Source of the DNA: Marsupella aquatica
Taxonomy: Eukaryota; Plantae; Marchantiophyta
DNA length: 64,000 bases
Reading direction: 5' to 3'
NCBI GenBank assembly: GCA_973895155.1
Contig: OZ316899.1
Location: 8,249,241-8,313,240 of the forward strand
Shown here: positions 1,846 to 45,350 of the stretch, piece after piece
Numbering within the stretch: the first letter of the stretch is position 1
Layout of the letters: each line of letters begins with the position of its first letter
Notes under the pieces: generated by a model
The model's database searches: none
What the model saw: only the letters and a program-made list of their open reading frames with translations
Told to the model about the DNA's origin: nothing
Translations under genes and position numbers: made by a program

Positions 1846-2333
1846 CAGCTCAAGAGGTTGAGCTTCTGCAACTACGACCCAAGGTTGCAACCGCCGATGA
1901 GTTGTTAGCAAATGCGCATGCCCTTACCGCCTTAGCCGAACAGGCCAAAGCCGGGAAGGAGGACAAGATTGCACACCTCCAAACCCAGGTTGACAGTTTG
2001 AAGAACCAAACTGTCATCTGGCAGAAAGACCTAGAGGAGGCCGAAGAGCGGGCCCAGCGTGACACTACGGAGATTGCCACCCTGCAGGCCGAAGTGGCAC
2101 GGCTTCAAGCCAAAGCCGAGAAACAGACCCAGGTGGTGGACAAGCTGACGAGCAACGCCCAGCAACTGGAAGAGGCATGCCAGGAGGCAGCTGAGGAGAC
2201 AAACACGGTGAAGCAAGAAAACGAGTCTCTATTGGACCAAGTCCAGCTCCTCAAGGCGGACAACGATAGACTCCGTAGACAGCGGGATGGCCACTCCCAC
2301 TCGGACGGCTCTGGCAAGCGCACCAAACATTAG
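1846..2333 (+). pseudogene. C-terminal coiled-coil portion of the protein encoded in element A's LTR
   Basis: Heptad-rich E/K/Q/L/A ORF (LQTQVDSLKNQ...LQAEVARLQAKAEK) cut at its 5' side by X copy 1; same position and composition as the X ORF C-terminus. Confidence 0.6.
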
Positions 2334-2663
2334 CGGAGGGTTAGGCTTAGAATAGACTTAGGAGTAGCTAAAACAGGCTGGTAGGAAAGTGCCGGCCAGA
2401 AGATAGCGGCGCTGACACATTAGCTAGCCTGTGTAGAATAGGTTAGACTAATAGGACAAGCAAGCACCAACTTAGCAAGGATATAAGTTAGCGTAGATTT
2501 GGGCACAACGTCAGGCCGGTCCTCAGCCCTTAGTATTTAGCGGCCCCCCCAGTAGAGGTTAGAGAGGGGGATTTTAGACTCAGAAGTTGGCCATTCACAG
2601 TACGTACGGGGAGTCCCAAACTTGGTGAAGTACCGGAGTACCAAGGGGAGGGTATACGACTAA

Positions 2664-4273
2664 CACTAGTACATTTTGGGGCCTAGTCCGATTCTCACCT
2701 TCCGATGATGCCAAGGTTTTCGATTCTATTCTAATTGGATGTACGATCCAACCGTCCAAGCCAACGCATATCGGACCTTGCCATTAAACTAGAATCGGAC
2801 TATCACCATTTCAACCCAATCACAAACGGGCCGTCACTACGATGTAGGAAAAGTTGGATTGTTTGTCCAAGCCAGAAACAATTGGACCGCTTGGTCTGAT
2901 TCTTCTCCAATGCTAGATGAATTGGAACCCCTTTCCAAAGAAAAATGTAAGCACATTTTCCGATCAAATTAGAATTGGAAGTTGCCATTCAATACAAATT
3001 GGAAGTTTTCAATGCGCATGGAATTGGATATTTCAAGGTTTTCAGGATTGGAAAATTGTTTCCAAGTGGTAGGCAATGGGATTCATATTTGCAATACAAA
3101 TACAATGAGATCTTGGTCCAATTGTTGGTGCAATGGACTTTGTGGTCCAACTCTTTGGGAATTGGAAGTGTGTCTACAATTCATTTAGAATTGGAACCTT
3201 TGGCAAGCTAGGGTCATCCCTCATCTGCCCATGGAAAGTATTGACCGGCCCTGAATCATGTGTAGCATAGCCTTTGTAGTCTGTGTTCCTAGGATGAGAA
3301 ATCTTATGCCAATGGCCATTCCTATCTTTACAATGCACTACCCTATAATGGTTACCAAATTTTTTTGTTAAATTGTAAGTCAAAGCCTTTTGACTCGATG
3401 AAAAAAAATTCTTGCGGTCAACAAAAACAGTTGTCTTCATTGTCATCTAGGTCAAAATTCTATATATATTGTATCCCCAAATGAACTTAACCACGCCCCA
3501 AAAGGAATTGTAGCAATTTGAGGAGGACATAGGTTTTTTTGGCGATCTAACATTGATAGGTAAATTGGTTCCCATATGGTCAACATAGAGCTTTCACAAT
3601 TGACCACGCAACCCAATGTCATGATACGCAAGAATTCATCAATAATTGGCCCAAACTGTGGATCTAAATGAACTCAGAGATGTATAAAAACCCCAGGCAC
3701 TCTATAAGAAACATCAGATGTGCCTAAGGTTGCATTACAATGCAAGAGCTAAGAACTAGGAAGTTAAGCACCTATTGAGAGGAATAGTGTTTGGGATGGG
3801 TGACCTGACTTCTCTAGTAGCCCACAGTCTTGCTAAGACTTGAAGCCTCACACAAAAGAATATGCCAATTAGCTAGTGATATGCAACCCGTGGAGGAGTA
3901 GGATCAGGTCGGGGCAGCGCTAGGGCCGCCGATTGGGGTAATCGCACTTCAATTTTTGATTTGATTCTAATTGGGACCCCTATCCCATTGTAGTACAATA
4001 GCACAATAGTTTCCGATTGCGAAGTACTTGGAAATGGTCATGCCATTCTCACATAATTGGACAATTGTTTGCCATTTCTTTTGAATTGAATGCATCTTTC
4101 CAATACTAGTTTAATTGGACAAGTCCGATCTCGGTCCGATAATGCTAACCCGATTGTTTGGGGATTGGATGATACGATGCGACTTAAATTGGAACATTGG
4201 TAAAAACTGCAACAATCCGCCGAAGGGGTCCGATTTGAGGAGAATTGGATTAAGGATGAATTATGTACTAGTG
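2664..4273. mobile_element. Non-autonomous CACTA (CMC/EnSpm-type) DNA transposon, 1610 bp
   Basis: 11-bp TIR CACTAGTACAT (2664-2674) / ATGTACTAGTG (4263-4273); 3-bp TSD TAA at 2661-2663 and 4274-4276; subterminal AATTGGA/TCCAA motifs; no transposase ORF. Confidence 0.9.
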
Positions 4274-4840
4274 TAAGCTCACTGGGCAAGTGCGGAGCCG
4301 GGCTCCGTTGTAGTGTATACTCCTTGGCCTTGGGCCCGGTCGTTCACGAGGTGTCGAGTCAACCAATCGTAAAGTGTATGATCATAAATGAATGAAATCC
4401 TTTCTCCTTAATTCCTTCGTGTAAATCGTGATTTCTATTATGTATGTATGCATGTATGAGTCTCGTGTGCAAGTATCAATGTTGGGCCGAACATGTTATG
4501 CCAACCGTGCACGGGGTGCAGGATACGGGTACGGGGTTGCGAGCCCGGGTTGAGCTCTTGTACTAACGGATCCGGATCAAAGGCGGTAACACAAAGGCTT
4601 AGAAGTCCGTGAGCCGGGGTCGACCCCGGGTCGACTAAAGTATGTTCCGGCGGCGGAACACAAACTATACCTAGGAGGTGTTTGTACATAATAATAAGCG
4701 CACTTAGCGCTAGTTTATGTGAATTAGGAGCATTCTGTGCGTCCCTCCCTGCTTGAACCCTCATATTCACAAAGGATGTGCCTATCTAAGCCAAAGCCCG
4801 GGTTAAGGCCTAGGCTGACGATGTGACATAGCCTTTTTTT

Positions 4841-4858
4841 TGGCGCTAGATGGAGGGG
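4841..4858 (+). other. Primer-binding site of element A, probably tRNA-Asn
   Basis: TGGCGCTAGATGGAGGGG, one mismatch to the complement of the plant tRNA-Asn(GUU) 3' end as I recall it (CCCTCCTTCTAGCGCCA); identical motif at 45333. Confidence 0.8.
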
Positions 4859-4956
4859 GCACTCTATGTGTAGTAGAGGGGAGACATGTGCGAATGCACC
4901 CGGGCAAGGTACACCAGTCCCCAGTTTGTTACTAACCATTGTCATTATATGAGTAG

Positions 4957-7090
4957 ATGCCCGTCACCCGATCTCAAGCCGCTTACTTGAGAAGATTGAC
5001 CAGCGAACGAGAGAGTGCGGCGACAACAAGCTCCAAATCCTCAAGCTCGGAGGATTTGCTATCGCCTTGACGAATGAACATGCCATCGGGACCTTCGGGG
5101 TCCGGACCAGCGGTCCTGCTCCGGTCCCTGCTGCGCCACCGCTAGCAGTACCAATGGCAGCAGTCCCACCGGCTATGGCTTGCGCTGCCCAAGCTCCCCC
5201 GCAAGTATCGCAACGGTCACGGTTTCATTATTGACCTTTCAAAGGGCGTCATGGGGATGATCCGGATGAATGGTTGGATGAATTTGAAGCCACTGCTAAG
5301 GCCAATGGGGAAGAGGCCATTAAGCTAACCATCCTCCCCGGTGTGATGCGGGGGGAAGCTCGTCCATGGTACAACTTGCTGCCACCCGGGACTACATGGG
5401 CACAATTCCAAGCTGCGTTGCTGCAAGAGTTTTGTGCCATTGGATCAAAGCAACGTTCTTTATTAAAGATTGGCCGGCTTTGCATGGGAAAGAAGGAATC
5501 CTTGCAAAATTTCATTCAGAAGTTTCAGAAACTTAATTACTGCCAAGATCCGGCCCAGGCCAGGGGATGCGCTCCAGCTTACGTGGTTTCTCCATGGTTT
5601 GCCCACGAATATGCAATTTTGGGTGCGCCAAAATAACCCGATTTCAATGCAAGTGGCCATAGCATGCGCCGAAACCTACCGGGAGTCCACTTATAACTCT
5701 CGGCAAAGTCAACGGGCACGCCGACATAAGGGCAAATACAAAACCTTCAGTGATAGTGACTCCAAATCGAACGACAAGAAGAAGAAGAAACGCAAGAAGA
5801 GGAAGAAACATCGTTCGACCTTGTCTAGTTTGGAGACGGAATCTAGTTCTGATTTGACTTTGACCAGCGGACCCTCCACTTCCAACTCATCGGGAAGTGA
5901 TTTGGAGAGCAAGAGCCAGAGCAAGAAGAAGAAGAGGCAAGCTAAGAAGGAAGAGAAGGTCAAGCCTCATGTTCGACGAACGATCCCCGATCCAAAGGCC
6001 GCTGAAGCAGACAAGCTCAATGAAATTATGGATCGTCTCAAAGCATTGTCGGTACACCTTGCGGACAAGCCCGTGGAGAAAAAGAAAACTTCCAAGACCC
6101 GAGCACACGCATGGTGCTCCAAGTGTTTCCAATCCGGTCACGTGGTGCAAGAATGCCCGCGATGGAAGAATAGGGTCCATCAGGTGTAATTGGAGGACGC
6201 TGACAGCCCGGGGCCAGAACCGGAGTCCACCAAATACTTCTTTGAAGACGCCACGGATTCTATCTACCAGATTTCCACGATGGGTCCACGCAACTTAGCT
6301 GGTAGAACGGCCTACCCTTACCCAAACAATGGCAGGAATGTCCAGGTTATGAGTAACCTGAGCATTCCTCCTAAACCCGGGATTTGGTGATCCCCAGTTT
6401 GTTACAATTGTGAGAAGCCGGGTCACTTTGCCAGGGAATGCACCGAGCCAAGACGGCAGGGAGATGGCCGGGGCACTCCACTATGTCAAGTTTGCAAAAC
6501 TAAGGCCCACTCCACGGCCAATTGCCCCTTGGTGATCGCTACCTAAGCAAGCGCAGCCAGGCCGGTCCTGGGAGGTCCTGCTACTAACCATGTCGTCGTA
6601 CAAGTGATCGCTGTAGAATGGCAAGATGATACCACGGAATGGGTGAACCTGGTGGATGTGGTGGAACACCCGAACCTGTCGGACAAAGTCAAGTGCTACT
6701 GCATGGCGACTCGCACCGAACGAAAGCAAGAGAAATAGGAAGAGAAGCATTGGAAGAAGCAAGATACTACCCCAGTGCAGCCAGTAGTAGAAATCTCCCC
6801 AAAGGAGGATGACGACTACCGACAAGACAACCCAAAGCTATTCTTCCCCGTATCAAAGAATTGGTTTAGAAGCAGTTGGAGGCTTATGAAGCACGCAAAT
6901 ACCAGAAGGCTATCGACAAGGATATCAAAGCAGCTGAAGCCGCCCAACAACAAGAGCGGGAGAAGCAACAGGAGGAAGCCCAACAGCGTCCCAAGGAAGA
7001 GAAGAAGGAGGACTACAATATCCGACAAGACGTGAAAAGTTGCCCGGTCACGGCAATAGTAGGGCAATTACTGCACAATAACCCTCAGTA
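4957..7090 (+). pseudogene. gag: gag of element A (capsid-like region, lysine/serine-rich linker, three zinc knuckles), with stops and frameshifts
   Basis: MPVTRSQ start; DDPDEWLDEFE...GEARPWY capsid motif; CSKCFQSGHVVQEC, CYNCEKPGHFAREC, CQVCKTKAHSTANC. Confidence 0.88.
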
Positions 7091-10000
7091 TTGACAACAA
7101 GGCAGTTACTCACGGGTCGACGACGAAGGCGGCTACCACGGGTAGGGACGGCAGATTGCAACATGATCTGCGAAGACCTAGGGGCGCCGGACATATCTAT
7201 TGAGATAAACAATTGCACCATTAAGATGGTTGACCGTGGCGCGGGAGTCAACATCATGACTGAAGAAACGTCGATCAAGCTGGGATATCTCACGTATCAA
7301 CCCACTGCCCGAGCCATCCGATTGGCTAATGGGGCACGGGTCCTTCCCTTAGGCACGCTCACGCGGGTGCTCACTCTTGTGGGGGGCGTTGAGTTCTACC
7401 TCAACTTCCTAGTCATGAGGCCGGTGAGACCATCCTCTTATCCAGTTCTGCTGGGGAGACCATGGCTATACGGGGGCAACGTAGTCACGGATTGGGGAAA
7501 GAAAGAGTTGCAATTTGGAACACCCACCGTGCGAGTGTCATGGGCCTTGGATGACTATGAGGGAGAGACACCACAGGGGCCGGAGGAATATGATTCAGAG
7601 ACCTCGGAGGAAGAAGAGCCCAACATGATAGAGCTCATTTCATCTCTTTCCGAGGAAGATATTTTCAGAATAGAGGCAACACGAGACACCCATCTCATGA
7701 ACTACCCAAAGGAAGACACGTGCGACCTCAACCCGAATTCCTCTAACCTCTCAACTAAGGTGCAGCCCGCCCAAAGTCTCAGCCCAAAGGACACACAGAA
7801 TGTAGCTCCAGCTAAGCAGGGAGCTGAAGCCATTATGCATACCATCAACCCCTCAGGAAGCGAGGCCACCACGACCTCAGCCAAAGCCAAGATTTTGGGC
7901 CCCAAGCAAAGGAAGCAAGTATCCTGGGACCTGTCTATCCCAATGGAAGAAGATGTGGTCGCAGCACCAGAGTCAAACCCTACCCCGCCGACGTACGGAG
8001 GAGTCCGCTTAGCAGAGCTAGACACTAGCCTGGACCCAGGCTTGCGTAATCAAGTAGAAGTCATCAGGAAGGAGCACTACCGGAAGTACACCACGGGGAT
8101 GGATAAGACGTTCAATTTAGGCCACGCCTTGACGGGTGAGACCAAGAAATCCATTCAGTCACTGCTCAAGGAGTATGAGGATGTGTTCGCATGGAGCCAT
8201 CATGACCTGACGGGTATCTCTCTCAAGCTAGGAGAACACACGATCAACCTGAACCTAGGTGCACACGCGGTACGGCAGCGCCAACGGCGTATGAAACTGA
8301 GATATTCAATCTTGGTAAAAGAAGAGATCGATTGTTTACTGGCCACGGATATCATTTACCCGGTAATGGCAAGTGATTGGGTATCTCCCATCGTCATCGT
8401 GCCAAAAAAGGGAGGCACGGAAGGGAAGCCAAAAATCCGCATTTGTCAAGATTATCGTAAGCTGAACAATGCTACCCAAAAGGACCACTATCCGTTACCA
8501 TTCACGGACATGGTTCTGGATATGGTAGCCCGGAATGAAATCTATACCTTCCTTGATGGCTATTCAGGCTACAACCAGATTTGGATCCGCCTCTTGGATC
8601 AGCTAAAAACCACGTTCACTACCGAGTGGGGGACATTTGCATTTCGAAGGAAGCCCTTCGGGCTGTCTAACGCCCCGGCCATGTTTCAGCGGCTCATGAT
8701 GAATATTTTCCATGATTTCTTACGGGAGTTTTTGGAAATATTTATCGATGACTTCGCCATCTTCAGAACGGTGGCCATGCACCCCAAACACCTACAATGT
8801 ACTCTATAGCAATGCCGGGAAGTTAACCTTAAGCTCCACCCAGGCAAGTGTTTTTTTGGGGTAGAAGAGGGAGTGCTGCTCGGCCATCGGGTATCCAAAC
8901 GGGGTATTGAAGTGGACCAGGAGAAGGTAGCAGCCTAGATGCCAGTAGTGTTTCCAGTAGATCAAAAAGTTGTAAGGTCTTTTCTAGGCTGTGTCGGGTA
9001 CTATCGCCGGTTCATTAAAGACTTTGCCAGAATTGCATTGCCCTTAACGGAGATGATGAAGAAGGACGCGGTGATCAAGGAGACACCCCGGAGATGTATT
9101 GCTTTCAAAGAACTCCATAAACGACTCACCACCGCACCTATCATGGTCACCCCGGACTGGAATAAAGAATTCCATGTGTATGTTGATGTGTCCGGGTTCT
9201 GTATTGGGTCCGTGCTCAGTCAGGTTGATGAGAACGGATGTGACCACCCCATCTACTTCGCTAGCCGTCAACTATTTGCAGCCGAGAAAAACTATTCTCC
9301 GACTGATCAAGAAGCTCTAGGTATTATCTACTCATGTAAGAAGTTCCGACACTATCTGCTTGGTTATAAGGTCATATTCCACACGGATCATGATAGCCTA
9401 AGTACATGGTAAACAAAGCAGATGTCACGGGACGGATAGCCCGGTGGGTGTTACTACTGCAAGGGTTTAATTACAAAGTATGGGTTTGACCCGGGAAGGC
9501 ACACCTCAACGCTGATTTCTTTTCAAGACTGGACGGAGTACCGGTTGAGCAACCCATTAACAACACCTTCCCCAATGAGGAATTGTTCCACATCGGGACG
9601 GGAGCGCCAACGTGGTATGGGCCAATCATTACGTTTTCCTTCTGACTGGGCGTATCCCTGACCGCATCAACCAGGAAGCTGCCGCTGTATTCCTTTGAAA
9701 GGCGGGGCCATACATCATGATATGGGGCCACTTACACAAGGAAGGAATTAACGGGAAAATACGACGCTGCCTGGACTACAAAGAAACTCTCATTGTGATG
9801 CGGGCCTTGCATGAAGAGGAAGTAGGAGGCCATTTTGCAGCTATCACCACCGCCCGGAAGATTCTCAACTCAGGGTATTGGTGGCCCACGTTGCATAGGG
9901 ATGTGCAGCGCTTCATCAAGGGCTGTGACCTGTGTCAGCGGGCTGGGGCCCCAAGACGAGCTCATCATCACCCCCTCACGTCAGTACCTCCCTTAGCACC

Positions 10001-10235
10001 TTTCGAAAAGTGGGGTATTGATTATATCGGGCCGTTCACTCCCGTTACCCAAAGATGAAGATGCAGGTACATCCTATTAGCTATAGATTACTCCACGAAG
10101 TGGGTCGAAGCACGGGCTACGGTGAGGGACGATGCCGCCACAAGCGCCCGGTTCTTATACAAGTAGATCTTCACCCGGTTTGGGCCAACCTTGGAATTAG
10201 TAAGCAACCGTGGAACACACTTCCTCAATGATACC
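7091..10235 (+). pseudogene. pol: pol of element A: aspartic protease, reverse transcriptase, RNase H, integrase N-terminal half
   Basis: PR (VDRGAG...VLLGRPWL); RT (SDWVSPIVIVPKKGG, DYRKLN, LDGYSGYNQI, IFIDDF); RH (VYVDVSGFCIGSVLSQ, NYSPTDQEAL); INT HHCC (HEEEVGGHF...CDLCQ) and WGIDYIGPF; several stops. Confidence 0.95.
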
Positions 10236-13200
10236 TGTGATGCCTAGCCAAGAATCACTAGGCCAGTTAAGTGGGGAAATGGAGGTGTACCCTATAAACA
10301 CATTAGTATAGTAACAAAAACAAGGAAAATATAAACAATTAGGGTGACTATGGAACCCGGGCTGAGGCCAGAGGTAAGGACGTCGGGGGAGAGAACACGA
10401 TTAGGGTTAGGGTGCGCTAAGCATCGGCGGCTAGGGGTAACCAACAGGAGGAAAGACCAGAGGAGGAGAGGGGTAAGGACCGCTCGCGAGGAATGGTGGC
10501 TCATTTGCAAGCACGAACTGGGCAGACGACTATGGAAGGCCAACTATTGTCAACTGCTTAGGCAAACACTCTGGGCGGGAGCAGATACCAACGATCGAGT
10601 CAAGGAGGGTATGAGCAACGTCAATCAAGCGGCACATTTTTGGGGATGCCTGTTCGAACGGGCAACTGAGTACATTAGGACTTACGAGAATGAGGAATCG
10701 GAGAGAGCAGCTCAAGAACGGCAGGAGCTCGCTCGATTGTGGGAGCTGCAGAAGTCTACCTTCTTAGAAGGAGAACTCATCAAGGCCGAGTTCTTGTGGA
10801 CTCCTACTGCCAATCAACTCGATGACCTTATGTTTTGCGAAGACAGAATCGTCGGCATTCGGGAAGCCATCAACCGTTGCAACGATGTGCACTGGGAGTT
10901 AAAGGGTAGCACGAAGGGGTGGACAAAGGCAACTGTGCTAGGAGAAACATCCACGGCAGCCGAGATGAAGAGGAAAGGAAACAACAACGAAGAGGCCACC
11001 TCGGAAAAAAGGCCGAGGCCGGGACAACCAGTAATGAAGCCGAGGTACAAGAAGAAAGAACAAGGTCGGCGGCACCAAGGAAGCCAGCAGAGTAGCAGAA
11101 CAGGAGGCAGGGAGAAGCCGAAGAGGAGGAGGTCGATCCCATCAATGCCATTCCAACAAAGGATGACACCTGGAAAGGCTGGGCGGCAACCCTACCAGAG
11201 GAAGTGCAATTACATTTTGCACGGGAGGAGGATGCATGCTTTACGGCCATGCAGACCAAGAAGTACCAGGGCTTCATGGCCGGATCCGGCTTGGAAGCCT
11301 TCGTAAGATTACCATGGCTGAAGCCGGAGGTGCCGGACTCAGACTTATTAGAATTTGTGGGATCATGGGAACCCGAGACCAATTCCACGAGGGTGTATGG
11401 GAAGGATTTCTATCTCACTCCCCGGGTGATTGCCAAGGTGTTTGGCTTGCCGATGGGTAATAAGACCAAGGTTGATACCAGGAAGACCTTACCTGACAAG
11501 GAGTTCCGATCGTTCCCAGGACCATCAACAAAGAATGGCTTCTTTCGGAACACTTGCACCAACCCGCACATCGGAGAGATGATCGATTTCTTGCGGGTGA
11601 CCATGCATTGTAACTTGCCGAGGGCAGAGATCGGCAAGGCTCAGGTCTACCTGGCAGAAAGGCCAGACCCAAGCCCGGATTACAACGGGTACCTCCTCAA
11701 CCAATTGAAGAAGATCTTGAAGGAGGAACAGCAGGTGACCGGTGTGGGAAGCGTGTCCCAACTTGACTATCACATGCCGCTGTTGTGCCGGTATGCCAGA
11801 AGTCAAATCTTTGCCCCAGTACTTCCCCTATCGGCAAGGGCACCGGAGGAGGTTTCGGAACAGAGGCCGGCAACAGAAGAGCCCAACCAGCCTGCCAATC
11901 TTACGATCGAGCAGGTGTTTCGGCCAAGGAAAGAAGACTTGCCGATGCAACAATCAGGCATGCAGAATCTGTTGAAATTGCTGGAGAAGGAGAAAACGGC
12001 ACCGGCAACGGCAATGGCAACGGCACCGGTACAGGACACTGCCCTAGAGGCCGGCCTAAGCCGACTCAGGAGGGAAAACCCCTTTACTGGAGCCAACAAG
12101 AAAAGGAGGCCGGAACACAAGCCAGGAGTTTGAATGTATGTGGGAGCCTCAAGCCCCAAATCGAAGGCAGAGTAGCCTAAGGCTCCTTCCCGTGGAAAGC
12201 AGAGGGAGAGGACAGCCTGGAAACCAGAGGAGGAACCAGAGCCCATGATCTGTGAGGCCGTTTTTACAGCAGGACCAGGGGAACGGAGGGGGAAGTCAGG
12301 AGTGCAAGTAGTGGAGGAGGCAGTGGAGGACTACAGCAATGATAACTCCGGCTATGGGTCGGATCATCATGTTCCAGGAGTACGGACCTATGGCCGGTTT
12401 ATCCCCACGCTTCCAAGAGTAGTTTGAGGGGACCCCACCCAGCAGAGTAGCCCCGAGTCTCCCCCACCAGAGGTTGCTCCCCTGAGCTTTGACGGCATAA
12501 AGCAGACTACACAAGAATTTCAGGAGCGACTTAGGGAGGAAGAGAAAGCAGTCCTGGCTAGGGAGAAAGATTTACCAGGAGGAGATTGGCCGGAGGACAT
12601 CAGGAGGCTTTCCAAAAAAAGAAGCAACCCTCTTGCCACCGTAGAAGAAATCGGCAAGGCGGCTTGGGAACAGAGGCCGGGGTGGTTGATGCCGATGACT
12701 TCTACTTACTCCACCTATGCTAAAGATAGAGCCATGGAGTACGGGGAGATGTGTGGGGACCTGGCGCTCAGCATCTTTGGGGAGGAGTTGGAGCAGGGAC
12801 CTTTTTTCCAGAGGGAGATGTTGGAGAAGCACCGATTAGAAGAAGCGGTGGCTTTGGAGAGAAGCAAGAAGGACGAGGTCATCCGACGGCTTAGGGAGAT
12901 GGAAGCCGAGGTGGAAGACCTGCAGGCGGCCAAGAAAGCCCAAGATGAGCTGCGGATTAAGCGACATGAGCTAAACATCATGCAAGGACAATTGGATGCC
13001 GCTCAGTCTGGCAATTAGATTATCAAAGATAAACTGACTCGGACCCAAGGAGAGTTGGTCGGCGCGGTCAAGGACAGGGAAAAGTGGAAGCAGGAGCTGA
13101 GGGACGCAGAGGAGGCCCACATAACCGCCAACAACCGGGCCATGGCGGAGACTCAGAGAAGGGAGAGGGCGTTGAAAGGAGAGCTCGAGGATATCCGCGG

Positions 13201-15006
13201 AGCCCTTGAGCACAAGGAGGCCGAGTTAGGGAAATCCTATCAAGGGATTATTGCGCTGCAGCAGGAGCTTGCGTCCCTGACGGCCAGCTTCAAGGCCGAC
13301 CTGCGTGAGAAGGATGACCAGCTTGACCAGACTTATGCCAAGATGAATAAGATGGAGTCTGAGGTCGTAACGGAGCTCGACAAGGAGCTAAGAGCAACCC
13401 AAGAGGAGAGGGCTACCTTAAAATTGGAATTGGAGGAAGCCAGAAAGGAGCTGCAGGAGGGACGGAAGGACCTGGAGGAAGCCCAGGAGGAGTTGGAGGA
13501 AACCACCAGGAAGATGGAGAACTTACAGCGGCAGGCCGACAACCAAACGGAGCGGCTGAAGAAATAGGCCGCAGTATTTAAGTGCTTAGCTTCATCTGGT
13601 CCAATTCCAATTGTGGAAACTCCGTTACCAGGAGGGGTACTGGCCGAAGGACAAGCCCAGACACACGCCCCGGTGCCGGAGGGTAGCAAGGGGAAGGGAC
13701 CAGCTACCAAAATAGGGAAGAAGAAGAAGCGGAAACCTTCTGGGTCTGGGAGTTATACGGCTTACCAAGCAGTTGTGACCCAGGAGGTCAACCCCGCACC
13801 AACCTCCGGCATGGTCACGACAGTAGATCCACCTATTGAAGAAGGTGGGGATGGCAAGGCCGAGGCCGGGACAGCTATTGATGAAGCCGAGGTACCGGAT
13901 CCTCCACTAGAACATGCCGAGAAGGCCGAAGCCGTATCGAAGGCCGTGACCGATGCTGAGGCCGAAGCCAAGGGTGGACCCAGTCAAGCCGATGAAGAGT
14001 TGACTTGGTCCGGGGCAGGTAATCTGTCAGGGGACGGACCAACGGCAGTGGCTGCGGGGGAAGCGTTGGGAGCGTCCATTGAGGATCCGCCACCGGTGTC
14101 ATGACGGTGCAAGGGCGCCGTTCCTTTTAGGAAGGACGGACGTGGAGGTAGGAGGCGTGAGTGGGCAGGGCGGGCTCAGATCTCCAAGTTTAGGATTAGG
14201 ATCAAGACCAGGAGACGGCCCTTACACTTAGATTAGTGGGATGGCGGATCCACTGGTAGGAGCAACACTTGTGCTCCTGCCTCATTGTACAATTAGGTAG
14301 ATTACAGGTAGGATAGATTAAGCTTACGCAGCGAAGTTCTGGACAGATCCGCTGCCAGGATGAATACCTGGGCAGCGGGGAGTCTAGGGCCTCTTCTTTA
14401 GCAAGTTTTTAGTTGCACCAGCAGGGCTGGGATCAAGTAGTAAGAGAAGCTCTCGGTTAGTTATACAGTGACCCTTGTGTATATTCATGTTTCCTCATGC
14501 CTAAGAACTGAATAGAGTTGGCCTCACGGCTTAGTTCGCAGAGCTTGTGTATGAGATGTACTGTTTGTATGGCAAGTGCATGGTATAACTCAGTCAGAAG
14601 GAGTCATTTTGCTATTTGTGTGTCGCATTAACTTGTGTGAAGAGTGCCCACATCAATGAAGGGAAGTAGCAAGGGAGTGAGAGTTGGATGTGTCGAGCTG
14701 AGAGAGATCTTAGCGGCTTAACCAAGCCAATTGGGGATCATTCCGGCGGTGGAATCCAAACATACCTAATGGAAGACCAGGAGAGGAATACAAGGGAAGG
14801 CCTAGAATAGGCCGGCTAAGTATCTCATGACCCGATGAAGGATCTATCCAGTATATGTGTGTAAAATGTTAATAGTAGCAGAAGGAGAGTTAGTAGCGTC
14901 CCATGCTGCTAAGCCGCGGAAATGGCCTTGTCGAGGACAAAACCTGCGGGAACTGGCTTGAGCAAGGGGGTTTTCTTGGGTTTGGGGAGCAATGGGACGC
15001 ACCACA
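10236..15006 (+). mobile_element. Family-X solo LTR, complete, 4771 bp, protein-coding
   Basis: Starts TGTGATGCC, ends GCACCACA; perfect 5-bp TSD ATACC (10231-10235 and 15007-15011); removing it restores the host integrase frame GTHFLNDT-IARLTERY; the same 3' end is followed by a PBS at 45328. Confidence 0.95.
10350..14104 (+). pseudogene. X-LTR-encoded protein, consensus ~1250 aa: helical N-terminus, plant-transposon/PMD-like domain, long coiled coil, acidic low-complexity tail
   Basis: ORF pieces 10344-11306, 11204-12133, 12686-13018, 13055-13567 and 13613-14104 join into one frame using other copies (e.g. TGA at 12131 is CGA in copy 4 and CAA in copy 3); motif LPW...LLEFVGSWE...RVYGKDFYLTPRVIAKVFGLP. 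Confidence 0.85.
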
Positions 15007-15063
15007 ATACCATAGCACGGCTTACGGAGCGTTACCTAGTCAAGCACTACAAGACTACCCCGT
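15007..15063 (+). pseudogene. 57-bp piece of element A integrase core between two insertions
   Basis: Encodes (D)TIARLTERYLVKHYKTTP, bridging 10235 and 18324. Confidence 0.9.
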
Positions 15064-15922
15064 TGTCGCGAGGACTTAAAGTTAGGGGCTCCTCGGGCAA
15101 ACTATGCATTTCTGGCTGCGATCGGGACAAGTAACAAGCACTTTTCGGAGCGAACTCTCACTCCTTTATATATATATTTTTACTTTTCTCACAAAGGTTA
15201 CAATAGGTGCCCTAGAGTAAGCTTGCCGGCTTGCAAGAGTCTGGTAGTTGGCCCTACGGCGGGCCGCTACCCCTAACTTGTCGAGTAGAACTCCTCGAGT
15301 GACTAACTACTCAAAATCTGACGGAAAAACTATCCTCCTTAGCTCACAAAACCAAAAACTTGACTAGCTACTCCACTAGTCTAAAACAGCTCGCACGGAA
15401 CTCCGGCCTGGACCAACGAGGCTCCAAACTCGAGAAATCCTTGCCTGGATCGACAAGACTCCAAACTTGAGAAATCCTCGCCTGGATAAACGAGACTCCA
15501 GACTCGAGAAATTCCCCGTCTGGATCAAAAACTCCCCACCTGGATCGAAAACTCACTCAGAACTCCAAAACCGCCACACAATAGTCGAGTTCCGCAGAAC
15601 GGAGCGGAACTCACAAAATGCAACTCAACAGATCTCAATAGACAACTGCCAACCTCAATGAGCTGATGCTCAAGTCTTAAGTAGCATCGGAAACCCAACC
15701 ATCCAGCCTGAGCCAACTGCCAGCAGCGAGGCTCATCTAAACTCCAAGTCTGGTGACTCACCCAAACACCAAACCTGGTGACGACGAGTCACCCAATCAC
15801 CAAACCTCAATCCATCCAACCAAGCAACCCCTCCGAGTCAACATGCACGCAACCCAACCGGGAGGCCTTACCCATCATCCCCTATAAAAGCCATTCCTGA
15901 GCCAAAATCTTTCGGCATGACA
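15064..15922 (-). repeat. 3' LTR of element B (contains ~37-bp internal tandem repeats near 15420-15560)
   Basis: Highly similar to 17471-18323; adjacent TCCTCCCCC (15923-15931) is the PPT on the minus strand. Confidence 0.93.
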
Positions 15923-15967
15923 TCCTCCCCCAGTAAACCTGAGCAGCCTCCGGTCTGCTCCAATCGA

Positions 15968-17310
15968 TCAGATTTCCTCTAAGTCTGAGTCCAAACTTGA
16001 GCCATGCGCCTGGGCCACTTCCTCCTCAAGAAACTCAAACCCAAAGCCTTCAGACTCGGCCTTAGGCACTCCACTTTCCAGAAACTCGAAGTCCAACTCA
16101 TCCGAATCAGAACCAGTAAAGCCACTTTCAAAACTCAAGTCCAACGGATGCGCCTGGACTAGTGCCTCGTCTTCAAATTCACTCAAGTCAGACCTTGAGT
16201 CCATTCCCTTCTCGGTCCTCCTCTTGAAGATCTTCACCCTTTTCGCTGCGTAAGGTACTTGGTGAACTGTTCCATCCAACTCCCGAATAGTGTAGGTTGC
16301 ATTCGCATGAATAGCAACCACCACATACGGACCTTGCCACATCCGAGCAAACTTGTTTTGGCTCAAGTGTTGCTCGTCCAACTTACTTTTGTAAACCAGA
16401 ACCCAATCCCCTTCCTTAACCAAGACAGGCCTCAACCGATGAGTCCTGTCGAACCTGCCCTTGTTCCTTAACCTCGCCATCTTCAATTGCTTCCAAGCCA
16501 CCTCAATCTTTGCGGGTAACAAGTTGAAGTGTTCGATCCTTTGAGCAGCAACTCCTCTCTCAAAACTTCATCTTTCCATCCAATCAATTGCCAGCTGCAA
16601 ACATCTTCCTCGAGTGGCATCATCGGCAAGTGCCCAGTAAGTAGCTCAGCCAGAACGTATCCGGTCACTGAGCTACAAGTCATCCGATCCGCTAACAGAG
16701 CAAGTGGAAGGAGACTCGACCACCTGCCCAAGTCCCCATCACAAGCCTTAGCCAAAGTGCCCACAATCTGGATGTGCCCCCTTTCAGATTTCCCAGTCCT
16801 CAACCCTTTCCTATTCCTCCCGTTTCCAGGTAAAATAGCCGGAAATTGAACCACCTCTTTCCCATCTTTGCTCCGAACCTTCACCATGAAGGTAGTATCA
16901 TCCAGAACCTTCGTCTCCATCCTCCATTCAGTGATGAACGGCATTCCCAGTATCACCGGAAATGACAAGTGCTCATGAACAAAAATGTTTCAAGCCTGCT
17001 TGACATTCCCGAACTTCACCATCACATTCGGACATCCGCCCCAAAGATAGTCCTTCATTGAACTCACCGAGTTCACACTCCAAAGCAACTCCTCTTTCAT
17101 CTTTTGGTCAAAGTCATCCCAGCCCTCAGCTGACTCAACGATGGTCCGCACCGTCGAACTCAACTCCTTCTCAACCAGCACCATGAACTCTTTCACGGCC
17201 GTCCCTTTGTCCAACTTGTAGACAGCTGCTTCTGTCAAGTAAGACTTAAGGTAGCTTGTCACATTTCTCCCATCGAACTCCCATTCTCTTTCAGAACCTC
17301 TTGAAGACAC
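15968..17310 (-). pseudogene. Fused gag / protease / integrase remnants of element B
   Basis: FDGRNVTSYL gag-like start; FPVILGMPF protease end; LPLALLADR...TGY and GDWVLV...WQGPYVV integrase C-terminus; no RT or RH. Confidence 0.85.
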
Positions 17311-17451
17311 CGAGTAGTTCTATTCGCTTCCCTGTTTGCCCTTTCCGACTCAAGCTCTTCCTTCCTTATGGTTCTCATCATCGACATGACGATGCTCGAT
17401 ATCCAATTGACTTCATCATAGTCACCCATCTCATCCAATCGCCCCAAGGAA

Positions 17452-17469
17452 TCCCCAGTATGGTCGCCA
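17452..17469 (-). other. Primer-binding site of element B, probably tRNA-Arg
   Basis: Minus strand TGGCGACCATACTGGGGA, 1 nt inside the LTR; resembles the Arg-type TGGCGAC...CTGGGGA PBS. Confidence 0.7.
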
Positions 17470-17470
17470 A

Positions 17471-18323
17471 TGTCGCGAGGACTTAAAGTTAGGGGCTCCT
17501 TGGGAAAACTAGGCATTTTTGGCTGCGATCGGGACAGGTGACAAGCACTTTTCCGAGCGAACTCTCACTCCTTTAAATTCTTTTTTTCTTTTCTCACAAA
17601 GGTTACAATAGGTGCCTTCGAGTAAGCTTGCCCGCAAGAGTCTGGTAGCTGGCCCTACGGCGGGCCGCTACCTCTAACTTATTGAGTAGAACTCTTCGAG
17701 TGACTAACTACTCAAAATCTGACGAAAAAACTATCCTCCTTAGCTCACAAAACCAAAAACTCGACTAGCTACTCTACTAGTCTAAAACAGCTCGCACGGA
17801 ACTCGGGCCTGGACCAACGAGGCTCCAAACTCGAGAAATCCTCGCCTGGATCGACAAGACTCCAAACTTGAGAAATCCCCGCCTAGATCAACAAGACTCC
17901 AGACTCGAGAAATTCCCCACCTGGATCAAAAACTCCCCACCTGGATCAAAAACTCACTCAGAACTCCAAAACCGCCGCACAACAGTCGAGTTCTGCAAAA
18001 CAGAGCGAAACTCACAGAACGCAACTCAACAGATCTCAATAGGCAACCGCCAACCTCAATGAGCCAAGGCTCAAGTCTTAAGTAGCATCGAAAACCCAAC
18101 CATCCAGCCTGAGCCAGCTGCCAGCAGCAAGGTTCATCCAAACTCCAAGCCTGGTGACTCACCCAAACACCAAACCTGGTGATGATGAGTCACCCAATCA
18201 CCAAACCTCAATCCATCCAACCAAGCAGCCCCTCCAAGTCAGCATGCACGCAACCCAACCGGGAGGCCTCGCCCATCATCCCCTATAAAAGCCATTCCTG
18301 AGCCAAAATCTTTTGGCACGACA
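17471..18323 (-). repeat. 5' LTR of element B
   Basis: Direct repeat of 15064-15922 with TG/CA ends, adjacent to the PBS. Confidence 0.93.
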
Positions 18324-18950
18324 CCGTATCATCCTAAAGCCAACGGGCTGATGGAGAGAGCCAACGATATCATAGGGAAGATCCTCAACAAGACGGTAGC
18401 CGCGCACAAAACGGATTGGGATGATAAGTTGTACGCAGTGGTGTACTCATATAATCTAGCTTACAAGACTACTACAAGTCACAACCCGTACTTTCTCAAG
18501 TTCGGCCAACATTCGTTGGTCCCCATTGAGTTCGAAGTACACACTCCACGAGTCAGCATTTGAGATCGCTTACCCAAACCCGAAAGTTTGTCAGACCGAG
18601 CTTATCAGATTGAAGCCTTAGAAGAGGCATGACTACTGGCAGCTTGACACACCGTGAAGCAACAGGCAGCTTCCAAGAAGCAGCACAACAAAGGACTATG
18701 GAAGATCGACATTGTGATGGGCGATCTAGTCCTGCTGTACGATAGTAGGTACATGCAATTTCCGAGGAAGCTTCATACCCGTTGGTTAGGGCCTTTCCTA
18801 GTCAATCAAATCTACCCTAACGGATCTTTGGAACTTGCAACATACGCCGATGATTTACTCCCCACGCGAGTCAATTACAATTGTGTGAAGAAGTACTACC
18901 ATTTAGATGACGATGCCAATAGTGATGTTTGCGAGGACGCTTCACAATTA
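18324..18950 (+). pseudogene. Integrase C-terminal half of element A (no chromodomain)
   Basis: YHPKANGLMERAN...DWDDKL, GDLVLLYDSR...KLHTRWLGPF (GPY/F module). Confidence 0.92.
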
Positions 18951-18962
18951 AGTAGGGAGCTA

Positions 18963-21818
18963 TGTGATGCCGCTGGTACAGTGGGTAATGAGTGATTTGG
19001 CCTAACGACGCTTAGCACGCACGTTAGGGGTATCTTAGGCCGTAATTATTAGCATAACGACAGTATTTAGATAGCCATTATGAGTAGGAAATCATTAGTC
19101 AATAAGGGGCGTTCATGTTCGGGCTGGTGGCGGGTCGCCATTCGCACGCCCGGGTTGCGAGCGTGTAATGGGCCCTCCACTCTTTCCCCTTGGGTCCGTA
19201 TAACAAAAATTGGGAGGCGGCCACTGACATGCGCTGACCCGGAGTGGCCGATACACTACGAGCATGAAAGGCTCGGCCTATAAGCAACAAGGAGGCGACA
19301 AGCGATCGACAAGCTCTCAGGGTATAAAAAGGGGGCCGATCCTTTGTAGTGCACCAGTTCTTCAGCCCACGCGCCAGCTTCGACCCCAGTTCTCTTGCTT
19401 ATCCTTAGTTGCCTTCCATCTCCTCTGAATGTCGGACACGATCCTTTCCAGTTTGGCCATACAATTTTGGACGCAATTCCTGTCTATCGGAGGGCACTTG
19501 GCCGACTCGTTGAAACACACCAACCCGTGACAATATAAGATTGAACGCGAGTACGAGAGAGCCATCCGCCTAGCAGGCCGCCATCACTATCTCCTTATTA
19601 CTTTGATTACCCATCCCAGATTGAGCTTTACCAACCCAAAGAAATATCAGGGTACTTTGATGGAGGCAAATATATCGGCTTCTGGGAGGCATTGCTTTGG
19701 CTCCCGGACGAGGTCTTCAATATCTCAGGCACGATCAACTTACAGCAGCACCATTTTGACCACATCCCCGCTCGGGTCTGGGACATCATCAACAGCAAGT
19801 CCAGCGCTACCCGATCTACAAGGGCGTCTACACTTGCATCAGAAAACCTCTACCGGCACCTACAAAATTTCATGGCAACCACACCATCGACCACCGGTGC
19901 CAGCCCAGCCGTGCCCGCACCAGCACCAGCTCAGGCTTAGGCTCCGCCTGAGCTTAGCCAACCCCCGCCACCAGTGGCCCCGCCCCTACAGGTGAGATCG
20001 GTCATCAACGCTGTGGACCTCAGCAACGACAAAGAGGCTACCTTACCCTTGCTCAGGCGGCCTAGAGGAGAAAGTACCCAGGGAGCCGGCACTACATCGC
20101 CCCTTCCCCAGGCCCGGACCAGAGTAGCGGCTCCAGAGGACAACACGGTGACCGTAGCCGCCCCGGCCCCAATACTAATGGCGGTGGCACTACCTACACC
20201 CGATCGAGAGGATGGGGAGGTGTCACCCTCCCCGAGCCAGTCTCGGGGAAAGAAGAGGAAGGAACTCGCAGCTATATCTGGGCTACCCATGGCCACGGTA
20301 GCCGCGGCCAAGGTAACAATGCACCGCATGGGGAAAAAGGTGCATAAGAACATCCTCCACCCCAAACATGCGGTGTACTCGAAGACTCAAGGGTTCAAGC
20401 ACCTCGCCTCCCTCCCCTGGAACACCTGCAGATCTACGAGGAGGACATGACGGAGTCGTCAAGAATTATGACAACGTCCGTCAGCATACTTGGCTGCGGG
20501 GGAGGAATATGTCCCTCACAGAGGAGCGGCTCAGGATGATCTTTGGGCTACCCGAGGGCGATCACCGAGTCGAGTCACGAGCTCCCGAGGGCAAGGGAGC
20601 CAAGTACCAATCCTTGAGTTTTCCCTCCGGGGGGTCAGTGGACAACGGGTTCGTGATGAGGACCTGCCTCATCCCCGAGATAGTTGAGCGACTGGAGTTC
20701 CAGAGGTACGCCCTCCACATGATGGAACCCCGGGGCGAGATCTCCGCTGCCCAGGTTATCCAGGTCAAGAACTATCGACCTAGGAAGTGGGCTTCGTACT
20801 TCGCTAAGAAGTTCCATGAAGAGATGGAGCGGCGAAGGAAGTCGCTATACATTGGCGAGAAGGCATATTTTGGGAGCCACATCGAGATCATTCTCGAGTG
20901 GTACGCCCGGTTTGATCGACGAACCCTTCCCCGGGTCAACGTAACTAAGTTGGTCCCGACTAAGTGGATCTTCCCGGCCTTGGAGAGACGGCCTCAACCC
21001 GAGGCCTGAAGTCTGGCGGCGACGCAGGCCTCACCCATCCAACCTCCACAGGTAGCGGTAGCCGTGGCCGAAGAAGTACCGGAAGAGGTAGTGATTGCAA
21101 CCTTAGACGCGATCAACCAGGCCGGGCCTGGTGCAGAAGTTGGGGCGGTGGAGGCCTTGCCCAAGCCCGAGGGTCCAGAAGACCCACTAGTGGCTATTCC
21201 AGAGGACGGCCCGATGGTGGAGGAGGACACTCCAGCCCCTTCCAATACTACATCCCCAGGGCTGGATGTCACTACCCCGGCTCCCACGCGAGTTAACGTC
21301 TGCCCGTGCCCAACTCCAGACGGGCATAACCTGGACCACCCGGAACTCTTCGTATCGAGTACATTTCTAAGTGGGCTTTTGGGTTCTCCTTAATTCCTTA
21401 ATTCCTTTGTGTAAATTGAGATTTCTGTTATGTATGTATGCATGTATGAGTCTCGTGTGCAAGTATCAATGTCGGGCTGAACACGTTATGCCAACCGTGC
21501 ACGGGGTGCAGGATACGGGTATGGGGTTGCAAGCCCGAGTTGAACTCTTGTACTAACGGATCCGGATCAAAGGCGGTAACATGAAGGCTTAGAAGTCCGT
21601 GAGCCGGGGTCGACCCCGTGTCGACTAAGGTATGTTCCGGCGGTGGAACACAAACTATACTTAGGAGGTGTCTGTACATAACAGTAAGCGCACTTAGCGC
21701 TAGTTTACGTGAATTAGGAGCATTTTGTGCGTCCCTCCCTGTCCGAACCCTCATATTCACAAAGGATGTGCCTGTCTAAGCCAAAGCCTGGGTTAAGGCC
21801 TAGGCTGACGACGTGACA
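18963..21818 (+). repeat. 3' LTR of element A, 2856 bp, with a probable internal deletion near 21384
   Basis: Begins TGTGATGCC (same 9 nt as the X LTR) 2 nt after purine-rich AAGTAGGGAGC; TATAAAAAGGGGG at ~19323; ends GACGTGACA like the 5' LTR. Confidence 0.8.
19429..21300 (+). pseudogene. Protein encoded inside element A's LTR; diverged homologue of the X-LTR protein
   Basis: LPW...WLRGRNMSLTEERLRMIFGLPEG...DNGFVMRTCLIPEIVERLEFQRYALHMMEPRGEISAAQV aligns by eye with X LPW...RVYGKDFYLTPRVIAKVFGLPMG...KNGFFRNTCTNPHIGEMIDFLRVTMHCNLPRAEIGKAQV; start position uncertain. Confidence 0.8.
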
Positions 21819-24713: not shown

Positions 24714-24779
24714 TAAAATATGAGAAGTAGAAAAAAGTCCAACACTCTAGTGAACTTCATGGTAGAAAAGTACGCCTCT

Positions 24780-32194: not shown

Positions 32195-35100
32195 TACCCC
32201 TGGTAACTGGGTTCCACCAATTGGAGTTGGACCTGATGAAGCCAAGCATTTAAATACTGTGGCTTGTGTCTTCAGCCGCTCCGTTTGGTTGTCGGCCCGC
32301 CGCTGTAGGTTCTCCATCTTCCTCGTGATTTCCTCCAACTCCTCTTGGGTCTCGTCCAGGTCCTTGCGCACCTCCTCTAGCTCCTTATTGGCTTCCTCCA
32401 ATTCTTTTTTCAAGGTAGCCCTCTCCTCCTGGGTTGCTCTTAGCTCCCTGTCGAGCTCTGCGACGACCACAAACTCCATCTTATTCATCTTGGCATAAGT
32501 CTGGTCGAGTTGGTCGTCCTTTTCACGCAGGTCGGCCTTGAAGCTGGCCGTCAGGGACGCAAGCTCCTGCTGCAGCGCAATAATCCTTTGATAGGATTTC
32601 CCTAACTCTGCTTCCTTCTACTCAAGGGCTCCGCGGATATCTTTGAGCTCTCCTTTCAATGCCCTCTCCCTTCTCTGGTTCTCCGCCATGGCCCGATTGT
32701 TGGTTGCTAAGTGGGCTTCCTCTACATCCCTTAGCTCCCGCTTCCATTTCTCTCTCTCCTTGACTGCGCCGGCCAACTCTCCTTGGGTCCGAGTCAGTTT
32801 ATCTTTGATAATCTGATTGTCAGACTGAGCGGTATCCAACTGCCCCTGCATGATGTTTAGCTCATGCCGCTTAATCCGCAACTCATCTTGGGCTTTCTTG
32901 GCTGCCTGCAGGTCTTCCACCTTGGCTTCCTTCTCCCTAAGCCGCCGGATGACCTCGTCCTTCTTGCTTCTCTCCAAAGCCACCGCTTCTTCTAATTGGT
33001 GCTTTTCCAACATCTCCCTCTGGAAAAAGGGTCCCTGCTCCAACTCCTCCCCAAAGATGCTGAGCGCCAAGTCCCCACACATCTCCCCGTACTCCATGGC
33101 TCTATCCTTAGCATAGGTGGAGTAACTAGAAGTCATCGGCATCAACCACCGCGGCCTCTGCTCCCAAGCCGTCTTGCGGATTTCTTCTACGGTGGCAAGA
33201 GGGTTGCTTCTTTTCTCGGCAAGCCGCTTGATGTCCTCCGGCCAATCTCCTCCTGGTAAATCCTTCTCCCTAGCCAGGACTGCTCTCTCTTCCTCCCTAA
33301 GTCGCTCCTGAAATTCTTGTGCCATCTGCTTTATGCCGTCAAAGCTCGGGGGAGCAACCTCTGGTGGTGGAGACTCGGTGTTACTCTGCTGGGTGGGGTC
33401 CCCTCGAACAACTCTTGGAAGTGTGGGGATAAATCGGCCACAGGTCCTTACTCCTGGAACATGATGATCCGACCCATAGTTGGAGTTATCATTGTTGTAG
33501 TCTTCCATTGCCTCCTCCACTACTTGGACTCCCGGCTCCTCTGCCTCTGATTCGGGGCTTGAGGCTCCCACGTACATTTGCACTCCCGGCTTGTGTTCCG
33601 GCCTTAATCTCTCCTTGGTTCTGGTAAAGGGGTCTTCCCTTCTGAGTCGGCTTAGGTCGACTTCTGGGGCAGCGTCCTATATCGGTGTCGTTGCCGTTGC
33701 CGGAACCGTTCTCTTTTCCTTCTCCAACAATTTTAGCAGATTTTGCATGCCTGGTTGCTGCATCGGCAAGTCTTCTTTCCTTGGCCTAAACACCTGCTCG
33801 ATCGTCGGACTGTCGGGCTGGTTGGGCTTCTCTGGTGCCGGCCTCTGCTCCGGGACCTCCTCCGGTGCCCTTGCCGATAGGGGAAGTACTGGGGCAAAGA
33901 TTTGACTTTTGGCATACCGGCACAACAGCGGCATGTGATAGCCAAGCCGGGACACGCTTCCCACGCCGATCACCTACTGTTCCTCCTTCAAGATCTTCTT
34001 CAGTTGGTTGAGGAGGTACCCGTTGTAATCCCGGCTTGGGTCTGGCCTTTCTGCCAGGTAGACCTGAGACTTGCCAATCTCTGCCCTCGGCAAGTTATAG
34101 TGCATGGTCACTCGCAAGAAATCAATCATCTCTCTGATGTGCGGGTTGGTGCAGGTGTTCCGGAAGAAGCCATTCTTCGTTGATGGTCCTGGGAACGACC
34201 GGAACTCCTTGTCAGGTAAGGTCTTCCTGGTATCAACCTTGGTCTTATTACCCATCGGCAAGCCAAACACCTCAGCAATCACCCGGGGAGTGAGATAGAA
34301 ATCCTTCCCATACACCCTCGTGGAATTGGTCTCGGGTTCCCATGATCCCACGAATTCTAACAACTCTGAGTCCGGCACCTTCGGCTTCAGCCATGGTAAT
34401 CTTACGAAGGCTTCCAAGCCGGATCCGGCCATGAAGCCTTGGTACTTCTTGGTCTGCATGGCTGTAAAGCATGCATCCTCCTCCCATGCAAAGTGTAATT
34501 GCACTTCCTCCGGTAGGGTCGCCGCCCAACCTTTCCAGGTGTCATCGTTTGTTGGAATGGCATTGATGGGATTGACCTCTTCCTCATCGGCTTCTCCCCT
34601 TGTCCTGCTCGGCTGCTCTACTGGCTTCCTAGGTGCCGCCGACCTCGTTCTTTTTGCCGGGGTGGCCTCTTCGTTGTTGTTTCCTTTCCTCTTCATCTCG
34701 ATTGCCGTGGATGTTTCTCCTAGCAAGGTTGCCTTCGTCCACCCCTCCGTGTTACCCTTCAACTCCCAGTGTAGGTCGTTGCAACGATTGATGGCTTCTC
34801 GGATGCCGACAATTTTGTTTTTGCAAAACAGAAGGTCGTCGAGTTGATTGGTAGTAGGAGTCCACAAGAACTCGGCCTTGATAAGTTCTCCTCCTAAGAA
34901 AGCCGTCTTCTGCAGTTCCCAGAGCCGAGCGAGCTCCTGCCGTTCTCGAGCTGCTCTCTCCGATTCTTCATCCTCGTAAGTCCTGACGTACTCACCTGCC
35001 CGTTCGAACAGGCATCCCCAAAAATGTGCCGCTTGATTGACATTGCTCATACCCTCCTTGAGTCGATCGTTGGTATCTGTTCCCACCCCGAGTGCTTGCC

Positions 35101-35428
35101 TAAGCAACGGACAGCATTTGGCCTCCCATAGTCGTCTGCCCAGTTCGTTCTTGTAAATGAGCCACTATTCCTCACGAGTGGTCCTTACCCCTCTCCTCCT
35201 CTGGTCTCCCCTCCCGTTGGTCACCCCTAGCCGCCGACGCTTAGCGCGCCCTAACCCTAATCGTGTTCTCTCCCCCGGCGTCCTCACTTCCGGCCTCGGC
35301 CCGGGTTCCATAGTCACCCTTAATTGTTTATATTTTCCTTGTTTTTTGGTCCTATACTAAGGTGTTTCCAGGGTACACTCCTGCTTACCATGTAAACCGG
35401 GCTTAGTGATTCCTGGCTAGGCATCACA
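32195..35428 (-). mobile_element. Family-X LTR copy 3, 3'-truncated, with its ORF (ATG 35311)
   Basis: Minus strand begins TGTGATGCCTAGCC at 35428, inside GFMAD of transposase 2; ORFs 33974-35107, 33677-33973, 32618-33583 and 32177-32488 match copy 2; homology stops at ~32195. Confidence 0.92.
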
Positions 35429-45328: not shown

Positions 45329-45332
45329 TTTT

Positions 45333-45350
45333 TGGCGCTAGATGGAGGGG
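45333..45350 (+). other. Primer-binding site of element D (tRNA-Asn-like)
   Basis: TGGCGCTAGATGGAGGGG, identical to 4841-4858. Confidence 0.85.

Follow-up and report, generated by a model that had tools for sequence, protein, structure and literature searches.

Can a protein-coding gene reside within the long terminal repeats (LTRs) of plant retrotransposons, and does it do so in two diverged families of the liverwort Marsupella aquatica? The question is raised by a 64,000-nt stretch of contig OZ316899.1 (the window, meaning the whole stretch of DNA that was analysed), which is a nest of transposons. Among these are element A, whose 3' LTR is at issue; X, an LTR that interrupts A as a solo copy; and D, an element whose gag gene lies behind an X-type LTR. 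We read A and X/D as Ty3/gypsy elements with long LTRs that contain a homologous gene, each LTR being a transcription unit and its product a nuclear accessory factor, and we give this reading as a whole a probability of about 0.6. That the LTRs of A and of X/D are coding is very probable, and the other parts of the reading are graded where they arise.

The gene within the LTRs of A and X

The original prediction for A described a purine tract, the same first 9 nt as in X, a TATA box and an open reading frame (ORF), and all of these are seen directly. The purine tract lies at ~18950-18960, just ahead of the LTR, which opens at 18963 with TGTGATGCC. In contrast to the further claim that the integrase ends about 50 bp before the tract, its frame runs through the tract and stops at 18993-5, ten codons inside the LTR, and pol abuts the LTR without a spacer. 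Private stops interrupt this frame up to 18645, but none occurs between there and 18993.

Only 424 bp of the two LTRs of A match within the window; therefore, the claim of a coding LTR needed a test from outside. In order to test the LTR start, contigs from four public runs, representing two organisms and at most two studies and having a word share with the window of 0.22-0.40, were aligned on 18888-19037; one of the runs may come from near the source of the window. Unrelated flanks end exactly at 18963 in 41 of 919 contigs (4/117, 14/209, 13/375 and 10/218 in the individual runs), and the flank letters before this position agree at just 0.40-0.57, as unrelated insertion sites should. In four long contigs, the 328-560 letters ahead of 18962-18964 are unlike, and other contigs pass from integrase through the polypurine tract (PPT) to the same start at 18963. 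At the far end of the LTR, one contig matches as far as 21818, beyond which its sequence departs. Each of the four runs covers all 30 bins of 18324-22400, and the ORF is skipped by none of the 15 contig joints listed, of 17. The flanks joining at 18963 indicate that this is the real LTR start, and 18963-21818 is an LTR and not an internal extra ORF. The original prediction had itself named the opposite case, in which 18963-21393 would be an extra ORF of the ordinary, internal kind, with an LTR of just ~430 bp. Although the ends of A do match over 424 bp only within the window, this case is refuted by the unrelated flanks at exactly 18963 in all four runs. In addition, the 424-bp block has neither a TG start nor a preceding purine tract, and a homologous gene lies in the solo LTR X, which is bounded by a target-site duplication (TSD). 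We leave this case next to no probability, and the placement of the gene inside the LTR of two diverged families stands on the contig flanks and on the TSD-bounded X.

The ORF of A consists of an N-terminal FW motif, a low-complexity region, a conserved core at ~20331-20910 and a Pro/Glu/Ala-rich tail, and this copy lacks a coiled coil. Stops near 19528, 19938 and 21007 interrupt the ORF, whose frame also changes near 19.6 kb and 20.44 kb; given that other copies show small indel differences around the frame changes, these breaks are probably private. A pyrimidine-rich stretch follows the TATA box (67% pyrimidine in 19363-19462), and behind the ORF there are four TGTA in 21394-21493, the predicted polyadenylation region.

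That X is an LTR follows from the X-type copy that ends at 45328 and is followed by D's primer binding site (PBS) and gag. The pattern TATA[AT]A occurs in LTR X at 10293 and 10330, near the 5' end, and TGTA clusters lie behind the stop, as in A. Among the X copies, the ratio of nonsynonymous to synonymous substitution rates (dN/dS) of the core is 0.09, 0.18 and 0.09 (bootstrap upper bounds 0.16-0.34), compared with 0.92-2.42 for the other frames. It is 0.16-0.34 in the N-terminal and coiled-coil regions and 0.60 in the C-terminal tail. The X ORF has evolved under purifying selection. The protein-level selection that was originally proposed is thus measured for X, whereas for A, with a single copy of its ORF in the window, it is suggested by conservation of the domain despite DNA divergence. 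Two telomere-like TTAGGG units are present in the head of LTR X at 10400-10412, and also in copies 1 and 3.

The alignment of the A core with the X protein, on which the original prediction had drawn, is sound: BLASTP gives 29% identity over 143 amino acids (E 9e-14), and the score was reached by none of 2000 shuffles for each of the three X copies. A hidden Markov model of 16 outside homologs, from which A and X were excluded, gives a match to A at 20458-20910 (E 3e-31) and a second one on the other side of the frame change, at 20331-20429 (E 6.5e-4), and it also detects X. Homology of the two cores beyond chance is therefore confirmed. The FW motif recurs N-terminally in A, X and two homologs, a weak match (E 0.03-0.04), and the outside homologs end in a coiled coil. 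Three of the ten homolog clusters looked up were named, all from the liverwort Calypogeia fissa, and these are the only named homologs. The lineage-defining status originally ascribed to the coding LTR is conjectural. Word-based searches with X gave no matches, and a profile search added one short protein. One metagenome scan gave no matches and the other 592 pattern matches, none of which was confirmed; no relevant sequence match for the LTR protein was found in the PDB. An ORF in a non-LTR context (55959-56924, 322 amino acids) has a short core-like resemblance by eye, but the profile gives no match and it was rejected.

The original statement that A and X lack evident DNA similarity largely holds, with the exception of a 29-nt motif close to the 3' end of each LTR (A 21635-21663, X 14741-14768), which was equalled in 0 of 100 shuffles. 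The two LTRs share DNA only in this motif and in their first 9 nt. The motif may serve as a cis element or as a binding site; it also occurs at 4645-4673 and 45071-45098, and has a short inverted repeat.

From the conserved block ahead of the LTR, contigs enter A, an X-like start (26 contigs, diverging at 18971) or a third start (18 contigs, diverging at 18967). The 26 contigs in which the block and the first 9 nt of A lead into what are, by eye, X-like letters indicate that the X family has the same tract before its 3' LTR. A coding LTR may exist in the third family as well. As an observation in its own right, the block at 18926-18962 recurs in three or more families whose LTRs start differently, and its coverage is far deeper than that of its neighbours.

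Table 1. Coordinates of the features in the window
Feature	Position	Strand	Description and basis
X copy 1	1..1845	-	Runs off the window
Left part of the 5' LTR region of A	1846..4404	+	Coiled-coil ORF tail to 2333, then trailer; broken by a CACTA-like element and X copy 1
Terminal part of the 5' LTR of A	4405..4828	+	396/424 identical to 21395-21818
PBS of A	4841..4860	+	20 nt identical to the PBS of D (45333-45352)
Internal region of A	4950..18962	+	gag (zinc knuckles), protease, reverse transcriptase, RNase H, integrase; Pfam (protease, RVT_1, RT_RNaseH) and translations
Solo LTR X	10236..15006	+	4,771 bp, TG...CA; perfect 5-bp TSD ATACC on both sides; within the integrase of A
ORF in LTR X	10611..14104	+	~1,150 codons; FW motif, core 11156-11821, long coiled coil, basic clusters; decayed copy
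Nested short LTR element	15064..18323	-	860-bp LTRs 92.5% alike; 4-bp TSD CCGT; internal part ~1.5 kb
Conserved pre-LTR block with PPT	18926..18962	+	Overlaps the 3' end of the integrase frame; common to several families
3' LTR of A	18963..21818	+	2,856 bp, TG...CA; contig flanks, far-end contig, 424-bp terminal match
TATA box (predicted promoter)	19323..19330	+	Sole TATA[AT]A within the 2,856-bp LTR
Decayed sense ORF in LTR A	19429..21393	+	ATG 19429, TAA 21391-3, ~650 codons
Non-coding trailer of LTR A	21394..21818	+	T-rich TGTA cluster, 29-nt motif, LTR end
X copy 3, 3'-truncated	32195..35428	-	N-terminus and core in a single open frame, 33974-35164
5'-truncated X-type LTR and PBS, then gag of D	41649..45352	+	LTR ends at 45328

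Element A and its 5' side

In A, gag, protease, reverse transcriptase, RNase H and, last, integrase follow one another in this order between LTRs of the TG...CA type, with a PBS behind the 5' LTR and a PPT ahead of the 3' LTR, as is characteristic of Ty3/gypsy elements. The integrase is split twice, by X at 10236-15006 and by the minus-strand element at 15064-18323, and resumes at 18324; once these two nested insertions are subtracted, the internal region measures ~6.1 kb. The minus-strand element is probably a deletion derivative, given the size of its internal part, and its TSD fits the NCGN target reported for Phygy (PMC6317226). A Pfam scan of the ORFs found one RNase H only in A, with a gap of ~300 nt between it and the integrase, and by eye its catalytic residues are apparently intact. 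No chromodomain was found after the integrase, whose frame leaves no room for one. The reverse transcriptase and integrase motifs, judged by eye, are what we take to be Athila-like. As originally claimed, A and D share an identical 20-nt PBS and homologous gag (67% identity over 58 amino acids). The PBS presumably matches tRNA-Asn, and there is no transfer RNA (tRNA) gene in the 64-kb window. The spacer between LTR end and PBS is 12 nt in A (4829-4840) versus 4 nt in D, which may be normal or the trace of a rearrangement.

The 5' side of A is harder to read, as no DNA match exists between 1846-4404 and 18963-21394. With the CACTA-like insertion subtracted, it consists of the tail of a coiled-coil ORF and a trailer of ~880 bp, near the 902 bp of X; the 3' copy has no coiled coil, a 425-bp trailer and a duplicated 8-bp sequence at the junction. 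Possibly the 3' LTR has suffered a deletion, which would fit the loss of the coiled coil, the short trailer and the duplication, but the absence of a loose end near 21395 among the 24 matches listed (there are 1,107 further ones), where a deletion private to this LTR ought to stand high in the ranking, counts against it. Equally possible is a chimeric 5' LTR derived from a sister family. Accordingly, 1846-4404 may be a longer form of the A LTR or the LTR of a sister family, and the LTR is coding under either explanation. The insertion itself, at 2664-4273 in the LTR trailer, is CACTA-like and non-autonomous, has terminal inverted repeats of 10 bp and is flanked by a 3-bp TSD.

Elsewhere in the window, 24773-27931 holds three tandem or nested repeat blocks with units of ~130-400 bp. 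On the minus strand, 28400-36640 contains decayed DNA transposon-like ORFs, partly duplicated and broken by X copy 3, which have no Pfam match below E 0.06; they show by eye a Cys/His motif that we assume to be SWIM-like.

Comparison with known systems

By analogy, the closest layout to the coding LTR of A and X appears to be that of mouse mammary tumour virus (MMTV) sag. In MMTV sag and lentiviral nef, a sense protein gene lies in the LTR and is duplicated with it (PMC2664473). However, these are genes of vertebrate retroviruses with LTRs of up to 1.3 kb and have no sequence relation to A or X, whereas here a plant retrotransposon has LTRs of 2.9-4.8 kb and an ORF of 650-1,150 codons.

Among plant elements, A resembles Athila in its domain order, the lack of an extra RNase H and of a chromodomain, and the presence of a sense accessory ORF behind pol; the 5-bp TSD, a further feature in common with Athila, was seen at solo LTR X. 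The ORF of Athila is situated between pol and the PPT; each element has one, and its expression involves splicing (PMC7197481). The ORF of A and X, in contrast, is found past the PPT and within the LTR, with pol reaching the LTR without a spacer; it has a TATA box in front, survives in solo LTRs and has no Pfam match. A weak, feature-level link, with Atlas scores of 0.83-0.84, connects the LTR protein to PF20167 (Transposase_32) and PF03078 (ATHILA ORF-1), and 166 of 168 PF03078 matches in REXdb are 3' sense ORFs (PMC6317226 supplement). Supplementary data of PMC6317226 give the PBS of Athila as tRNA-Asp in 72% and tRNA-Asn in 12%. No additional RNase H of the kind that characterizes Tat (TatI-III, Ogre, Retand) was found in A. 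Phygy and Selgy have a 4-bp TSD and no extra ORF (PMC6317226 supplement), unlike X with its 5-bp TSD and long ORF. The elements treated in PMC10508981 are like A in having a native and no extra RNase H and a probable liverwort host, and the section concerned describes no LTR-borne gene. Retrosat2, RIRE3 and RIRE8 share LTRs of ~3 kb, an extra fast-evolving ORF and many solo LTRs (PMC3485330), but their ORF0 is described as being upstream of gag-pol and not in the LTR, and they belong to another lineage.

For the fold of the LTR protein core, the best whole-domain match, a weak one, is to VANC21 of VANDAL21, which is grouped here with PMD proteins as DNA-binding anti-silencing proteins borne by transposons. 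VANC, too, is an accessory protein of a transposon, and variable regions surround its conserved domain (PMC5735166), although it is encoded by a DNA transposon, targets tandemly repeated motifs and has no sequence similarity to the LTR protein.

Expression, origin and significance

A TATA box near the 5' end together with TGTA clusters behind the stop gives the layout of a whole transcription unit, and the LTR is likely to be one in its own right. Transcription would start just behind the TATA box, pass the ORF and be polyadenylated in the TGTA-rich trailer, and 5', 3' and solo LTRs would each be able to express the gene. Since the position of the gene is between PPT and PBS, both LTRs would receive it during reverse transcription, and recombination between LTRs would leave it in solo LTRs. 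By both routes it would come to outnumber gag-pol, and could act in trans. A nuclear accessory role of the PMD/DUF1985/ATHILA-ORF1 type has about an even chance, and a specifically anti-silencing one, of a protein that binds DNA, is doubtful. For the origin of the arrangement, what seems most likely is that an Athila-type 3' accessory ORF was captured into U3 as priming moved to the tract at the end of pol. This course is plausible and unproven; pol abutting the LTR and the weak link to the Athila 3' ORF domains speak for it, and with no vestige of the old tract we hold it tentatively, somewhat below even odds.

Several findings weigh against our reading of A and X/D. The two LTRs of A disagree left of ~4400, and the A LTR is spanned by no single contig, its continuity coming from the window and from tiled short contigs. 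Every copy of the gene in the window is broken, and Pfam has no match for the core in A, X or the 16 homologs. The search for a vestigial PPT gave 8 matches where 5.7 were expected, none of them in the LTR trailers, and a purine run before TG is likewise absent from the trailers. No second TATA box is present inside either LTR, and capture into U3 through a PPT shift would want one. Atlas scores below 0.9, which include those above, serve as leads only. The Z score of the VANC21 match is often reached by chance, on a model with a predicted local distance difference test score (pLDDT) of 62.7, and VANC21 is not listed for the first model, by Foldseek or by the sequence profile. Finally, no 7-9-mer exceeds shuffles in the non-coding parts of the LTRs (the best was equalled in 11 of 100 shuffles, on single decayed copies). 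Folding of the terminal 339 nt was not clearly better than in shuffles (z -1.0 and -1.9).

In a rival reading of the same coding LTR, the 5' TATA box would be the sole promoter and the gene would lie in a multi-kilobase R region, the ORF having entered by insertion downstream of the start site and ahead of the poly(A) site, with no capture by a PPT shift. Most transcripts would then end at the poly(A) site of the 5' LTR as accessory mRNA, and read-through would provide genomic RNA. The restriction of TATA[AT]A boxes to the 5' end of both LTRs, the TGTA clusters behind the ORF and the missing vestigial PPT all agree with this. However, a poly(A) site that in the 5' LTR lies kilobases away from the cap would need to be suppressed, gag would need a route of translation behind a long ORF, and very long R regions are unusual; we consider it somewhat unlikely. 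Still less likely is that a former 5' extra ORF, of the Ogre ORF1 or Retrosat2/RIRE3 ORF0 type, was drawn into U5 by a downstream move of the PBS. The order of TATA box, leader and ORF does resemble a 5' extra ORF, and Retrosat2 has LTRs of >3.2 kb with ORF0 upstream of gag-pol (PMC3485330). Nevertheless, a second PBS motif is absent in both LTRs, the poly(A)-like signals stand behind the ORF and not before it, and the domain leads favour 3' Athila ORFs, given the REXdb count above (PMC6317226 supplement).

As for the product, an envelope-like or movement protein in place of a nuclear factor is improbable. Athila 3' ORFs have been termed env-like (PMC7264820), and a long coiled coil is present, but a hydrophobic helix is missing from A, from X and from three of the four homologs. 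The highest 19-residue hydropathy is 1.43 in A and 1.00 in X, one homolog reaching 1.65, and basic clusters are present.

Plant LTRs are treated as non-coding, and here two families ~30% alike in protein carry an LTR gene of 650-1,150 codons. The review PMC7264820, in its treatment of additional ORFs, places them in the internal region, and our literature searches for a plant ORF inside a retrotransposon LTR gave retroviral cases only, most subscription journals lying outside their coverage. The REXdb counts of 5' and 3' extra ORFs could hide ORFs located in LTRs. With a gene in the LTR, solo LTRs would not be inert, selection would bias LTR-based dating, and annotation pipelines would label such LTRs as host genes, which may explain the Calypogeia proteins. 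What the extra ORFs of plant retrotransposons do has long been a question, and the weak but coherent link to VANC/PMD offers anti-silencing as a candidate. It is unlikely, though conceivable, that a bryophyte Ty3/gypsy lineage moved a VANC/PMD-like anti-silencing gene into its LTR. If this were true, each solo LTR would be a complete gene protecting the family in trans, and the host's main removal mechanism would multiply the counter-defence gene.
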